DNA of 64,000 nucleotides from Gemmatimonadales bacterium (lineage in GTDB: Bacteria; Gemmatimonadota; Gemmatimonadetes; Gemmatimonadales; GWC2-71-9): positions 10,439-74,438 of the forward strand of contig JBBQXQ010000001.1 of the NCBI GenBank assembly GCA_038209515.1, read 5' to 3'. Positions 32,435 to 35,566 of this stretch are shown here, in pieces. The notes under the pieces are model-generated. The model did not search any database. It saw nothing but the letters and a program-made list of their open reading frames with translations, and had not been told where the DNA came from. Numbering within the stretch: the stretch's first letter is position 1; the number at the start of each line of letters is the position of its first letter. A program made the translations under genes and the position numbers.

Positions 32435-33142
32435 TTGAGCGGCGGTGTCATCGCCATCGACGGGCCAGCGGCCTCGGGAAAGTCGAGTACCGCGCGCGCC
32501 GTGGCCGAAGCGCTCGGTCTTGCCCACCTCGATTCGGGCTCGCTCTACCGGGGGGTGACCCTCGTTGCCCTGCGAGAGGCGGCAAGGCGGGGGCTTCAGA
32601 CTGACGACCTCAGCACTCTCAGTCCTGAAACGATTTTGAGGGCCGCCGAGGATCGCGGCCTGATGCTTCAGCCGGACGAGGCCGGGTTCGCCGCGTATCT
32701 CGAAGGTGAGCCGGTGGACCTGGAGATCAGGAGCGCGAGGGTCACCGCGCAGGTCTCCGCCATCTCGGCTATTCCGGTGGTGCGCGAATGGATCAATGCC
32801 CGGTTGCGAGCCCTGGTTCGCGCGGGTCAGGACGTCGTGGTGGATGGACGGGATATCGGCACGGTGGTCTTTCCCGACGCCGACCTCAAAATCTTTCTGA
32901 CTGCGTCGCCTCAGGCTCGAGCGGGCCGCCGCATCAGCCAGCGCGGCATACCGGTACAGCCCGAGGGCCTCGATGCCGAAGCCGCCGCTCTGGCGGCGCG
33001 TGACCACGCCGATTCGACCCGGGCCGTGGCCCCGCTTCGGGCCGCCAGCGACGCGGTTCACCTTGACACCACCACCATGGACTTTGTCGAGCAGGTTCGC
33101 GTCATCGTGGACCGCGCCCGGCCGATCTTCTCCCGCCGCTGA
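32435..33142 (+). CDS. cmk: Cytidylate kinase
   Basis: TTG start. P-loop IAIDGPAASGKSS, plus DSGSLYR and VVDGRDIGTVVFPDA. Confidence 0.92.
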   Translation: MSGGVIAIDGPAASGKSSTARAVAEALGLAHLDSGSLYRGVTLVALREAARRGLQTDDLSTLSPETILRAAEDRGLMLQPDEAGFAAYLEGEPVDLEIRSARVTAQVSAISAIPVVREWINARLRALVRAGQDVVVDGRDIGTVVFPDADLKIFLTASPQARAGRRISQRGIPVQPEGLDAEAAALAARDHADSTRAVAPLRAASDAVHLDTTTMDFVEQVRVIVDRARPIFSRR

Positions 33143-33162: not shown

Positions 33163-33174
33163 CCCAACCGATTG
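33163..33174. repeat. Left copy of flanking direct repeat CCCAACCGATTG
   Basis: Identical 12-mer at 35555-35566. Confidence 0.8.
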
Positions 33175-33290
33175 GCGCTGGTCCAATAAAGTTGTTACAA
33201 AGGAGGGATAGTGGGTCCTAACCCGCCACTTTGGCGAGCTTTGGGCAGTATTCGGCTTGTGCTTGAGCGTTCTGGAACACACATTCCGGC

Positions 33291-33668
33291 ATGGCCGAGG
33301 CTCCCCAGTCCATTTCCATTGTCTACGAAGAGCAGGACGTCCGTCCCACGATCCCCGTCAACGGGGCGATTGGGGGACCCTCTGTTGATGGCACCCTCGT
33401 CTTTATGCATGTCTATTCTGAGTTTGGCACCATTCCAGCGATGGAGGAGCATGAGGTGGGGCCAGGCGGACAGGTGGATGTGTCCAAGGGAAACATCATC
33501 AAACGAGGCACTCTTACCCGAAAAGTGCTTGCTACTCTGGTTCTTTCTCCCGAAGCCAGCGTGGTTGTCGGTAAATGGCTTCTTGAAAGAGCTGAGGTGG
33601 CGCGGCAGACTCGAACTCAGTACCAGGCTCATATGGATAAGCAGGCTAAGGCGGAGAAGCAGAAATGA
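33291..33668 (+). CDS. Passenger ORF1, hypothetical (DUF3467-like by eye)
   Basis: 125 aa. Beta-rich N-terminal half, then KVLATLVLSPEASVVVGKWLLERAE and a Lys/Gln-rich tail. This is the only protein-like frame here. Confidence 0.55.
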   Translation: MAEAPQSISIVYEEQDVRPTIPVNGAIGGPSVDGTLVFMHVYSEFGTIPAMEEHEVGPGGQVDVSKGNIIKRGTLTRKVLATLVLSPEASVVVGKWLLERAEVARQTRTQYQAHMDKQAKAEKQK

Positions 33669-34060
33669 GCAGCGCAGCGGCGGCGACCGCGTCGGCCAAG
33701 TGGCTTCGGCACACACCCCTGTCGTATACAACACTTGTGCGCCCACAAGCTGCTCCAGTGCCTGAGGCTTCCTCGCCGCCGGCGAGCATCCCAGGGCCAC
33801 TAGCCGGGCTTACGGTCCACCCGGGCCGACCCATCATCCGCCTTCATAAAGAGCCGTTCTTCGTGGAGCGGGACGGTGATACTGTCTACATCCGGCATGA
33901 GCGGTGGAGCCTTCTGGGCGCGGGGGAAACCCTTACGGCTGCATACAAGGATTTGCTGTCAGAGGCTTCCGACCTTGCGCCCGTTTTGGGTGCCATGCTA
34001 TTGAGCACATTCGACCAGGACGCTATGGATCTTTACCAATTCGTCCTTCGTATCGCATAG
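33665..34060 (+). CDS. Passenger ORF2, hypothetical (HicB/UPF0150-like C-terminal half)
   Basis: ATGA overlap with ORF1. FFVERDGDTVYIRHERWSLLGAGETLTAAYKDLLSEA resembles the HicB N-domain. The N-terminal ~55 aa are low complexity, so the start is uncertain. Confidence 0.5.
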   Translation: MSSAAAATASAKWLRHTPLSYTTLVRPQAAPVPEASSPPASIPGPLAGLTVHPGRPIIRLHKEPFFVERDGDTVYIRHERWSLLGAGETLTAAYKDLLSEASDLAPVLGAMLLSTFDQDAMDLYQFVLRIA

Positions 34061-34063
34061 GCA

Positions 34064-34375
34064 ATGCCTAGGGAACGTGCCGCGATTGTCTCCTCGCTTA
34101 CTTCCAAGGGTTTCGCACTTCGCCCGGGCAACCGGGACCACGATTACTACTTCTTTTCGCACGCAGGACTTACCCGCGCGGTCTTTACTAAGGTTTCGCG
34201 CGGTACGGCATTTCGGGAATACAACGATGGCTTGCTTAGTAAAATGAGTCGTCAACTCCAGCTTACACGCTCCCAATTGAATGACCTTATAGACTGTCCT
34301 TTGGATAGCCCTGGATACGTGACGGCCCTGACAGCTCGCGGAGTAATCCGGCCCTTGTCCCAAGGCGGTCAATGA
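34064..34375 (+). CDS. Passenger ORF3, hypothetical (HicA/YcfA-like)
   Basis: 103 aa starting 3 nt after ORF2. SLTSKGFALRPGNRDHDYYFF...TKVSRG...DGLLSKMSRQLQLTRSQLNDL parallels HicA toxins. Confidence 0.5.
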   Translation: MPRERAAIVSSLTSKGFALRPGNRDHDYYFFSHAGLTRAVFTKVSRGTAFREYNDGLLSKMSRQLQLTRSQLNDLIDCPLDSPGYVTALTARGVIRPLSQGGQ

Positions 34376-34623
34376 TGCATACTGGACGTATGCCTAAACG
34401 GTCAAGTAAGCCACCTACGGACCCCAACGAGGCCGCTTTCCGGGCCGTTGCTCGCTTGACGGGCACCGATCCCGATGCTGACGCACGGAGCCAAGCAGCG
34501 AGGCTGCTGGGCAGCCTGGGGGGCCGAATAGGAGGCCCGGCCCGGGCAAAGGTGCTCAGTGCCAAGCGACGAAAAGCCATCGCCAAAAAAGCGGCTCAGG
34601 CTCGCTGGCATAAGAAGGGCTAG
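34372..34623 (+). CDS. Passenger ORF4, small basic protein
   Basis: ATGA overlap with ORF3. C-terminal motif GGPARAKVLSAKRRKAIAKKAAQARWHKK. Confidence 0.5.
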   Translation: MMHTGRMPKRSSKPPTDPNEAAFRAVARLTGTDPDADARSQAARLLGSLGGRIGGPARAKVLSAKRRKAIAKKAAQARWHKKG

Positions 34624-34647
34624 GGCAGCCACCTAGCCCTCTTTCTT
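34617..34647 (+). terminator. Rho-independent terminator of the passenger cassette
   Basis: GGGCTAGG-loop(7)-CCTAGCCC followed by TCTTTCTT. The ORF4 stop codon lies in the stem. Confidence 0.65.
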
Positions 34648-34652
34648 GGCCC

Positions 34653-34681
34653 TTGCATTCTTGACCGCTCAAGCATAGATT
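34653..34681 (+). promoter_or_regulatory. Sigma-70-like promoter for the transposase (TTGCAT-17 nt-TAGATT)
   Basis: The -10 hexamer ends 7 nt before the ATG at 34689, which implies a leaderless or near-leaderless mRNA. Confidence 0.45.
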
Positions 34682-34688
34682 ATCTAGC

Positions 34689-35546
34689 ATGAATCGCCTC
34701 TCGCCAGCCGTACGCGGTACAGCCCTCCGGTGCTTGACGGACGGGATGAGTGTTCGGGCCGCCTCTCGGGTGGCTGGGATCAGCAAGGGTGCGGTCCTCC
34801 GGCTGCTGGCTGAGGCTGGGGAGTTTTGCTCGGCTTACCACTGCTTGCGGATGCGGAACCTTCCCACGGTCCGGGTCGAGGCAGATGAGCAGTGGAGTTT
34901 TTGCGGGACCAAGCAGAGGAATGCCACGCTACCGGGGCACGGCGACATTTGGACCTTCGCCGCAATAGATGCCGACACCAAGCTAGTCATCTCCTACCTG
35001 GTCGGCGCTCGGAATAACGAAAACACCTTCGCGTTCATGGAGGACCTGGCTGGCCGGGTCAAAGGACGTATCCAGCTCACCACGGACGGATGGCTCGGCT
35101 ACGTCACCGCCGTGCGCCATGCATTCGGGTTTGCCCGTTGCGACTTCGCCCAGCTTGTGAAGCAGTACGCTGTCTCGATAGACGAGGAAAGCCGTCGTCG
35201 CTACAGCCCGCCCATGTGCACCGGGGCAATGAAGATCCGGGTGATCGGTCGGCCCGACATGGACAAGGTGTCAACCTCCTACGTTGAAAACCTCAACCTC
35301 AACACCCGGCAGCACTGCAAGCGGTTTGCGAGGCTGACGATTGCCCATTCCAGGAAGGCCGAGAACCACGTTCACGCCGTCGCCCTCAACTTTTTCGTGC
35401 ACAACTTCATTCGGGTGCACTCCACTCTGACCAGCGAGCGGAAGGCTAAGACAACCCCGGCTATGGCTTCTGGCCTGACGGACCGCCCGTGGACGGTGGA
35501 CGACCTGCTAATTCTGATGGACCCGAAATCTGTTACAGTCAAATAG
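34689..35546 (+). CDS. IS1 family transposase (single ORF, no frameshift)
   Basis: 285 aa. N-terminal HTH; catalytic-region motifs ADEQWSF, TTDGWLGY and YVENLNLNTRQHCKRFARLTIAHSRK. The last matches the IS1 InsB signature [25 protein letters not shown]. Confidence 0.85.
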   Translation: MNRLSPAVRGTALRCLTDGMSVRAASRVAGISKGAVLRLLAEAGEFCSAYHCLRMRNLPTVRVEADEQWSFCGTKQRNATLPGHGDIWTFAAIDADTKLVISYLVGARNNENTFAFMEDLAGRVKGRIQLTTDGWLGYVTAVRHAFGFARCDFAQLVKQYAVSIDEESRRRYSPPMCTGAMKIRVIGRPDMDKVSTSYVENLNLNTRQHCKRFARLTIAHSRKAENHVHAVALNFFVHNFIRVHSTLTSERKAKTTPAMASGLTDRPWTVDDLLILMDPKSVTVK

Positions 35547-35554
35547 ACCCAGCG

Positions 35555-35566
35555 CCCAACCGATTG
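35555..35566. repeat. Right copy of flanking direct repeat CCCAACCGATTG
   Basis: Identical 12-mer at 33163-33174. Confidence 0.8.

Follow-up and report, generated by a model that had tools for sequence, protein, structure and literature searches.

The window analysed here, 64,000 nucleotides (nt) of the Gemmatimonadales bacterium contig JBBQXQ010000001.1 (assembly GCA_038209515.1), contains an insertion sequence (IS) of the IS1 family between cmk (32435–33142) and rpsA. The element occupies positions 33174–35556 (2,383 base pairs, bp) and holds four short open reading frames (ORF1–ORF4) and a transposase gene. We interpret it as an element of this family that has two genes of its own, ORF4 and the transposase gene, and carries a captured tripartite toxin-antitoxin operon similar to HicAB (ORF1–ORF3); the probability of this reading is estimated at about 0.6. 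An earlier note on this DNA had treated all four ORFs as one passenger cassette, either an extended toxin-antitoxin module or an undescribed one. The first of these possibilities fits a HicAB-like tripartite cargo with an extra partner, but ORF4 falls outside the module, and the module is not a new category.

The insertion element and its genes

The element is flanked by a perfect 9-bp direct repeat, CAACCGATT, which represents the target-site duplication (left copy 33165–33173, right copy 35557–35565); the exact identity of the flanking repeat reaches 12 nt, CCCAACCGATTG. The terminal inverted repeats are imperfect and about 26 nt long. The left one (33174–33199, forward strand), GGCGCTGGTCCAATAAAGTTGTTACA, agrees with the reverse complement of the right end, GGCGCTGGGTCTATTTGACTGTAACA, and the right one (35531–35556, reverse strand) overlaps the 3′ end of the transposase gene. 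The transposase gene (34689–35546, forward strand) is one uninterrupted ORF coding for 285 amino acids. Its product matched the Pfam family DDE_Tnp_IS1 above the threshold (E-value 3e-12; 47.4 bits with a cut-off of 24.1) and scored 70 bits against the stricter NCBIfam IS1 equivalog, under the cut-off of 100. Classical IS1 has the insA-insB′ organisation with a programmed −1 frameshift. This layout was not found in the window element, where the transposase is encoded by a single ORF and ORF4 is set off by a terminator and a promoter-like site.

The architecture of the ends recurs in three related loci, L083, L076, and L144, and the right junction of L144 is identical to that of the window. L083 is an independent copy filling nearly the whole of a 2,551-bp contig. 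It contains the same five genes, has ends homologous to those in the window (GGGACTGGTTCC... and ...GACCCAGTCCC), and is flanked by its own 9-bp duplication, CTGCCCCGC. Inverted repeats combined with a duplication of 8–9 bp, by which the IS1 family is recognised, were found in the window element, in L083 (9 bp), and in the minimal element L038 described below (8 bp). The inverted repeats, the 9-bp direct repeat, the Pfam-level IS1 transposase, and the matching ends of L083 with their own duplication confirm that the cassette rides on a transposon, as had been supposed. The G+C content of the cassette was 0.52–0.62, compared to 0.65–0.70 in the upstream flank.

All four ORFs lie on the forward strand, at 33291–33668 (ORF1), 33665–34060 (ORF2), 34064–34375 (ORF3), and 34372–34623 (ORF4). 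ORF1 and ORF2 share an ATGA overlap, ORF2 and ORF3 are separated by 3 nt, and ORF3 and ORF4 share another ATGA overlap; coordinates, direction, and junctions were re-read exactly as the earlier note gives them. The hairpin terminator with which that note closed the ORF1–ORF4 operon is also present (34616–34650, forward strand). It consists of a 9-bp stem with six G-C pairs, spanning 34616–34640, and a T-rich tail, CTTTCTT. The local fold energy was −32.9 kcal/mol. The z-score of the fold was only −1.6, yet the hairpin is kept in the related elements L083 and L076.

An exhaustive HMMER search of 1.84 billion representative proteins with a concatenated query yielded 1,739 matches at E ≤ 1e-3 and a separate protein family for each ORF. 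In comparison with the syntenic locus L144, the ratio of non-synonymous to synonymous substitution rates (dN/dS) was 0.12 for ORF1, 0.22 for ORF2, 0.11 for ORF3, and 0.09 for the transposase gene; ORF4 had 0 non-synonymous and 5 synonymous changes, its product being 100% identical. The flanking genes gave values in the same range (cmk 0.08, aroA 0.12). All four ORFs are therefore under purifying selection (dN/dS 0–0.22) and, having protein families of their own, are real genes and not chance ORFs, in agreement with their first description.

Gene content of the conserved unit

The distribution of ORF2 was surveyed in genome and metagenome collections with a hand-made degenerate DNA pattern based on its invariant residues, F..E(x9)H..WSL.G.G. 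The survey yielded 47 true ORF2 loci. ORF3 was located directly downstream of ORF2 in 32 of the 39 loci where this could be assessed, and ORF1 directly upstream in 25 of 36. ORF4 was found in 6 of the 47 loci and an IS1-like transposase in 3 of 47. The order ORF1-ORF2-ORF3, in retrieved loci where no IS1-like transposase was detected, was observed in Ignavibacteria, Chlorobiota, Balneolales, a metagenome-assembled genome (MAG) labelled "delta proteobacterium", and Gemmatimonadota. The conserved unit is thus the pair ORF2-ORF3, usually with ORF1 ahead of it. In the literature on DUF3467, ISMhu11, and tripartite HicA or YoeB systems, no description of the ORF1-ORF2-ORF3 triad was found.

ORF4 showed a different distribution. 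Its homologues were detected in 58 contigs of the viral collection, and these contigs contained no homologues of ORF1–ORF3 except for one match to the ORF3 family, on the opposite strand and about 3 kb away (L023). An IS1-like transposase gene was located within about 5 kb of the ORF4 homologue in 30 of 57 viral-contig loci, in 28 of these 30 downstream and on the same strand, and most of the transposases matched that of the window with E-values of 1e-60 to 1e-78. The minimal element, L038 (5938–7302), is an IS of 1,365 bp with only two genes, an ORF4 homologue and a transposase gene; it has 19-nt inverted repeats starting with GGTAGTG and an 8-bp duplication, CACTGGCA. The transposases of L083 and L076 were 64% and 57% identical to that of the window, respectively, and ORF4 of L083 was 81% identical. 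At the DNA level, the similarity of the window to L083 and L076 extends from ORF4 through the transposase gene, and the triad region does not align. The linkage to the transposase, the DNA similarity starting at ORF4, and the minimal L038 identify ORF4 as the element's own gene, part of the IS backbone rather than of the triad. Since ORF4 is found near the transposase and seldom with the triad, the cassette is not one four-gene module, as proposed in the earlier note. The proposed co-occurrence of the genes was observed for ORF1-ORF2-ORF3, which recur in this order without the IS, but ORF4 rarely joins them.

The product of ORF4 (83 amino acids, isoelectric point (pI) 11.9) is a small basic protein, as had been described. 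Its family comprises at least 8,000 clusters at E ≤ 1e-3. Among the 120 clusters listed, none had a Pfam domain, and the names, where given, were "hypothetical protein"; ORF4 itself had no detectable similarity to any Pfam family. The conserved sequence of the family is MPKRSSKPP.DPN...GGxxGGxARAxxLSxxxRxxIAxxAAxxRW. In IS1, the insA gene occupies just the same place upstream of the transposase gene. Small, very basic, and encoded in an InsA-like position, the ORF4 protein is probably, by analogy, a DNA-binding regulator of transposition.

At approximately 20 viral-contig loci, the ORF4 homologue has a neighbouring gene on the other strand that codes for a protein of about 370 amino acids; in L008, L019, and L021 this gene is located between ORF4 and the IS1-like transposase gene. 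This protein has an N-terminal helix-turn-helix (HTH) domain of the XRE type and is similar to ImmA/IrrE by eye. The presence of such proteins beside ORF4 suggests that the same IS lineage bears other types of cargo. One triad without ORF4 and transposase, in the metagenomic contig L002 (5400–5500 and the 3′ end), lies close to a tRNA-like sequence recognised by eye; this neighbourhood may be an integration hot spot.

The putative toxin and antitoxin

ORF3 codes for 103 amino acids, of which residues 1–75 represent the HicA-like putative toxin and the remainder a conserved C-terminal extension (Cys78, Tyr85). Likeness to HicA toxins, earlier noticed by eye, was supported at the level of the family: 19 of 63 members matched the Pfam family HicA_toxin (PF07927) at E ≤ 0.1, the best with 1.5e-5, and the family consensus matched it with an E-value of 2.9e-4 over positions 2–57 of the 58 of the model. 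Alignment of the ORF3 family with the HicA-family structure 1WHZ by hhalign gave an E-value of 7.5e-5 and a probability of 62% over 67 columns. In this alignment, His26 of ORF3, which is kept in at least 90% of the family, coincides with the HicA histidine. Judged by sequence, ORF3 is a divergent HicA-like protein with a conserved histidine. Its C-terminal segment of 25 amino acids, with the invariant Cys78, is conserved in the family and absent from HicA.

The putative antitoxin, ORF2 (131 amino acids), consists of a disordered basic extension (residues 1–55) and an acidic core (residues 57–130). AlphaFold2 predicted the core with a confidence score (pLDDT) of about 95, as four strands followed by two helices, and the extension with a pLDDT of 50–62. 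The best match of the core in the PDB by Foldseek was the putative antitoxin 3K6Q (E-value 0.087, probability 0.96, root-mean-square deviation (rmsd) 3.1 Å over 69 columns), with 4P78 (HicB3; E-value 0.73, 2.9 Å over 49 columns) and 6G1C (HicB N-domain; E-value 1.5, 2.8 Å over 47 columns) also found. Many double-stranded RNA-binding domains (dsRBDs) were mixed among the matches, and none of any kind was obtained at E ≤ 1e-3. No Pfam match was found with the protein or the family consensus, and hhalign against E. coli HicB was not significant (E-value 0.26). The proposed similarity of the C-terminal half to the HicB N-domain is weakly supported: the top Foldseek matches are HicB-type antitoxins and dsRBDs, but none of the scores is significant. 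No C-terminal DNA-binding domain of the ribbon-helix-helix (RHH) or HTH type was found in ORF2; both the model and the alignment end after the core helices, at residue 131.

The charges of the proteins are complementary. ORF3 is basic (pI 10.1) and the ORF2 core acidic (pI 4.7), and the same holds for the ORF2 extension (pI 10.9) and the folded core of ORF1 (pI 5.0); this pattern is typical of toxin-antitoxin pairs.

ORF1 and its possible role

ORF1, the first gene of the triad, codes for a putative accessory protein of 125 amino acids. AlphaFold2 predicted an antiparallel sheet followed by a helix of 38 residues (87–124) with a pLDDT of 92. No Pfam, NCBIfam, or PADLOC match and no significant PHROGs match was found for ORF1, and its profile gave 0 matches among PDB sequences. 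The proteins matched in the profile search had no precomputed Pfam domain attached and, where named, were called "hypothetical protein". DUF3467 (PF11950), the family that ORF1 had been said by eye to resemble, was rejected, as neither ORF1 itself (E ≤ 1), nor 48 members of its family (E ≤ 0.1), nor the family consensus (E ≤ 10) matched it. Homology to SecB-like chaperones was rejected as well: SecB was absent from the profile search and from the best 50 of the 134 Foldseek matches in the PDB, and hhalign with the E. coli SecB sequence, an approximate query, was not significant (E-value 0.71).

Relatives of ORF1 were also found next to another type of toxin: three independent loci code for an ORF1 homologue, a protein of about 90 amino acids, and a YoeB toxin, in that order. 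The contig of L143 (and L145) contains capsid genes and is phage-like, and the YoeB protein there matched its Pfam family with 8e-31; YoeB was identified by precomputed Pfam annotation in L146 and by eye in the translation of L147. The middle proteins of about 90 amino acids, inspected by eye, appear to consist of an N-terminal extension of about 45 amino acids and a Phd/YefM-like toxin-binding tail and, like ORF2, have no recognisable DNA-binding domain. In a further locus, L142 (6001–7006), the ORF1 homologue is followed by proteins of 87 and 122 amino acids of no recognised family. The latter appeared RelE/ParE-like by eye but had no match in Pfam or among PDB sequences and was not counted; it may be a third type of toxin partnered with ORF1.

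The length of the ORF2 extension tracks the presence of ORF1: it was 62–108 amino acids in 25 triads and 31–53 in 5 pairs lacking ORF1, all values being upper bounds set by the choice of start codon, in few loci that are not phylogenetically independent. The YoeB-linked relatives, this trend, and the complementary charges suggest for ORF1 the role of a portable accessory to toxin-antitoxin systems, acting on the N-terminal extension of the antitoxin. A wider proposal is that ORF1 founds an undescribed, non-SecB class of accessory proteins, which would read the N-terminal extensions of antitoxins devoid of DNA-binding domains and would be portable between HicA-like and YoeB toxins, and that the module was captured by an abundant IS1-like family in Gemmatimonadota. 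We put this forward tentatively, as possible rather than probable.

The main rival explanation assumes a regulator-antitoxin-toxin system like omega-epsilon-zeta or PaaR2-PaaA2-ParE2, in which ORF1, as a separate transcriptional autoregulator, would bind DNA in place of ORF2. The omega and PaaR2 genes are the first genes of their operons, as ORF1 is, and in both types of ORF1-linked partner, ORF2 and the proteins of about 90 amino acids, a DNA-binding domain could not be recognised. ORF1 ends in a basic stretch of 25 residues (pI 9.8); against this, its folded core is acidic, as noted above, 69% of the family members have a pI below 7, and neither Pfam nor Foldseek in the PDB revealed an RHH, HTH, or any further DNA-binding fold or domain in ORF1. 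A conserved motif, TGCTTGAGCG... (33260–33277, forward strand), a candidate operator or promoter element, precedes ORF1 and would suit a regulator. However, the motif is also present ahead of the transposase gene and, in elements devoid of ORF1, on both sides of ORF4.

The positions 33260–33277 and 34658–34675, the latter upstream of the transposase gene, form an inverted repeat with 83% complementarity. A promoter-like site of the transposase gene was found by a consensus scan at 34658–34690 (forward strand; TTGACC, 18 nt, TAGCAT). It overlaps a near-palindrome, CTTGACCGCTCAAG, and the inverse of TGCTTGAGCG within this near-palindrome overlaps the −35 box. The TGCTTGAGCG motif is kept upstream of ORF1 in L086 and occurs in a variant form in L083 and L076, in both of which the promoter-like sequence of the transposase gene is nearly identical to that of the window. 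In L039, an analogous pair of motifs flanks the ORF4 gene. From the sequence pattern, it is plausible that the TGCTTGAGCG and CTTGACCGCTCAAG motifs represent a shared operator. Its occurrence before the transposase gene and around ORF4 in ORF1-less elements indicates that it more likely belongs to a regulator of the IS. We therefore consider an autoregulatory ORF1 unlikely and retain the accessory role as the preferred suggestion.

Another explanation concerns abortive infection: ORF1 would sense a phage protein and free the HicA-like toxin upon infection, a mode of action proposed for toxin-antitoxin-chaperone (TAC) and CapRel-type systems, and the IS would merely spread the module. The only structural relative of ORF1, obtained with the model against BFVD, is an uncharacterised phage protein (E-value 5e-5), and one of the ORF1-YoeB triads lies among capsid genes in the phage-like contig. 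TAC systems have been reported to defend against phages (10.1101/2024.02.24.581848; PMC11618068). These observations are opposed by the absence of a PADLOC match for any of the four proteins and by the genomic context, as no defence island was seen around the window copy, which has cmk and rpsA, both housekeeping genes, as its neighbours and is kept at this site in a relative whose DNA differs by about 10–12%. Moreover, the degenerate ORF1 pattern gave only two chance matches and no true homologue in the viral contigs. Protein P0167, used as a query in these contigs, matched its own contig only. A module dedicated to phage defence, with the IS as a mere vehicle, is thus decidedly improbable in our opinion.

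Strength of the toxin-antitoxin interpretation

Several results weigh against the interpretation of the element as a carrier of a HicAB-like toxin-antitoxin operon. The ORF3 protein of the window had no match to the Pfam family HicA_toxin at E ≤ 1, nor any match in the whole of Pfam, NCBIfam, PADLOC, and PHROGs, and the score of the family consensus, 21.3 bits, was under the gathering score of 27. The likeness of ORF2 to HicB is structural, weak, and statistically not significant. For ORF1, none of the 134 Foldseek matches in the PDB reached E ≤ 1e-3; with no recognised fold or domain, neither the role of a chaperone nor that of a regulator can be read from this protein, and the trend in extension length bears the restrictions given with it. 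PADLOC-DB 2.0 contained 0 families matching any of the five proteins (ORF1–ORF4 and the transposase) at E ≤ 1. In the related element L076 (2752–4071), the regions of ORF1 and ORF2 each match in two reading frames, which points either to decay of the cargo or to errors of assembly. Toxicity of ORF3 and its neutralisation by ORF2 are read from family resemblance and should be regarded as putative.

These points are shared in part by the explanation that the triad is not a toxin-antitoxin system but a non-toxic RNA-binding or other complex, in which HicA- and HicB-like (dsRBD-like) folds serve another function. Every family assignment lies under the curated thresholds, ordinary dsRBDs accompany HicB among the ORF2 matches, and the 25-amino-acid extension of ORF3 with its invariant cysteine has no counterpart in HicA. 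Yet the histidine at the catalytic position is retained throughout most of the ORF3 family in alignment with that of HicA, the basic and acidic partners form a pair typical of toxins and antitoxins, and relatives of ORF1 accompany genuine YoeB toxins. The patchy spread over five differently labelled lineages, with some copies on a mobile element, also speaks against a non-toxic complex, and we regard this explanation as very improbable.

We infer the following mechanism for the captured toxin-antitoxin operon from sequence, predicted structure, and synteny. The element has captured a three-gene operon between its left end and ORF4, and the ATGA overlap fuses this operon to ORF4, the presumed regulator of transposition. 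ORF3 would be a HicA-like toxin, probably a ribonuclease using the conserved histidine, and ORF2 would neutralise it through its acidic core similar to the HicB N-domain. ORF1 would bind the basic extension of ORF2 and thereby stabilise or control the antitoxin, in a role analogous but not homologous to that of the SecB-like TAC chaperone. The module may stabilise the element or the host replicon or may act as a defence of the abortive-infection type.

Comparison with known systems

The reference set for HicAB consisted of HicA (PF07927, 1WHZ) and HicB (6HPB, 4P78, 6G1C, 3K6Q). As in HicAB, the putative toxin aligns over the whole HicA domain with a conserved histidine, the predicted core of the putative antitoxin has a b-b-b-a topology with HicB-type antitoxins (6G1C, 4P78, 3K6Q) as its best, though not significant, structural matches, and the ORF2 and ORF3 genes are adjacent and coupled and code for an acidic and a basic protein. 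The triad differs from HicAB in scores below the Pfam gathering threshold, in the disordered N-terminal extension of ORF2 (55–100 amino acids) and its lack of a C-terminal RHH or HTH domain, in the extra conserved C-terminal segment of ORF3, and in ORF1 as a third conserved gene ahead of the pair. In addition, the gene of the antitoxin-like ORF2 precedes that of the toxin-like ORF3, whereas in canonical hicAB the toxin gene comes first.

With TAC systems, the triad shares the tripartite operon, an antitoxin with a variable disordered extension, and a third component accompanying several toxin-antitoxin families, HicA-like and YoeB in the case of ORF1. The SecB-like chaperone of TAC serves the HigBA, MqsRA, and HicAB families (Bordes et al., 2016; PMC5105189). 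Unlike this chaperone, ORF1 has no similarity to SecB and is encoded first in the operon, whereas the TAC accessory gene is the last; a chaperone role of ORF1 would be an analogy. The antitoxins associated with ORF1 have no DNA-binding domain. The chaperone-addiction extension of TAC antitoxins is C-terminal, and no such extension was found in ORF2, in which the disordered part comprises residues 1–55. The omega-epsilon-zeta and paaR2-paaA2-parE2 systems have the same order of accessory, antitoxin, and toxin genes and an antitoxin without a DNA-binding domain; ORF1 differs from their regulators by the absence of RHH and HTH folds and by its acidic core.

The element resembles the IS1 family in its DDE_Tnp_IS1 transposase, its GG...TG ends (GGTAGTG in L038), duplications of 8–9 bp, and a gene for a small basic protein ahead of the transposase gene, in the position of insA. 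It differs in having a single transposase ORF of 285 amino acids, scored under the NCBIfam IS1 cut-off, an ORF4 protein without likeness to any Pfam family, and a cargo of three genes. IS elements carrying passenger genes have been termed "transporter IS" (PMC9330008). Tn3-family transposons with embedded toxin-antitoxin pairs have been described (Lima-Mendez et al., 2020; PMC7157771); they share with the present element a toxin-antitoxin module inside a transposable element, adjoining the transposition genes, and differ from it in that here the carrier is an IS1-like IS and the module is tripartite, HicAB-like, and translationally fused to a gene of the IS. Compared to HicAB, TAC, other three-component systems, transporter IS, and Tn3-borne pairs, the triad and its carrier are a variant and not a new category.

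Related elements and history of the locus

L076, a further copy or variant of the element, was found in a Gemmatimonadales MAG. A start codon is not evident in its ORF3; ORF4 and, as far as the contig reaches, the transposase gene are intact. Other copies or variants are L086–L095, L100, and L117. The longer contigs among them, L086–L091, have an extra gene in the opposite direction, coding for 238–265 amino acids, that separates ORF4 from the transposase gene.

In the related metagenomic contig L144, the same insertion is flanked by aroA, a VanZ-like gene, cmk, and rpsA, and the DNA identity to the window organism is 88–90% over 12 kb. The element has been present in the cmk-rpsA spacer since before the split of the window organism and L144. 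No contig with a cmk-rpsA spacer lacking the IS was found in the metagenome collection. Synonymous divergence (dS) between the window (33291–35546) and L144 (6001–8262) varied along the element, being 1.19 in ORF1, 1.06 in ORF2, 0.32 in ORF3, 0.08 in ORF4, and 0.65 in the transposase gene, with values of about 0.3 in the flanking genes. Such a mosaic in two copies at one chromosomal site suggests segmental replacement by recombination among copies of the element. The left junction of L144 (5850–5900) contains about 30 extra nt, GGTAGTGGCCAGGCCACTGC, together with a second CAACCGATTG, which look like an end of the IS1 type (GGTAGTG...); another insertion event at this spot may have left them as a footprint.

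Biological implications

ORF4 represents a very large family without a name and seems to belong to the core genes of an abundant lineage of IS1-like elements; genome annotation probably overlooks or mislabels the family. An element whose operon has become joined to a putative toxin-antitoxin module bears on the question of how the smallest transposons gain addiction cargo and profit from it. Few kinds of tripartite toxin-antitoxin systems are known, and in TAC, the best studied of them, the chaperone makes the antitoxin conditional and can sense phage. If ORF1 is indeed an accessory protein of unrecognised fold, shared by two unrelated toxin families and by antitoxins devoid of DNA-binding domains, the triads would be a second, independently evolved case of "antitoxin addiction" to a third partner, and they would offer both a second solution and a clean system for studying the control of antitoxin stability.

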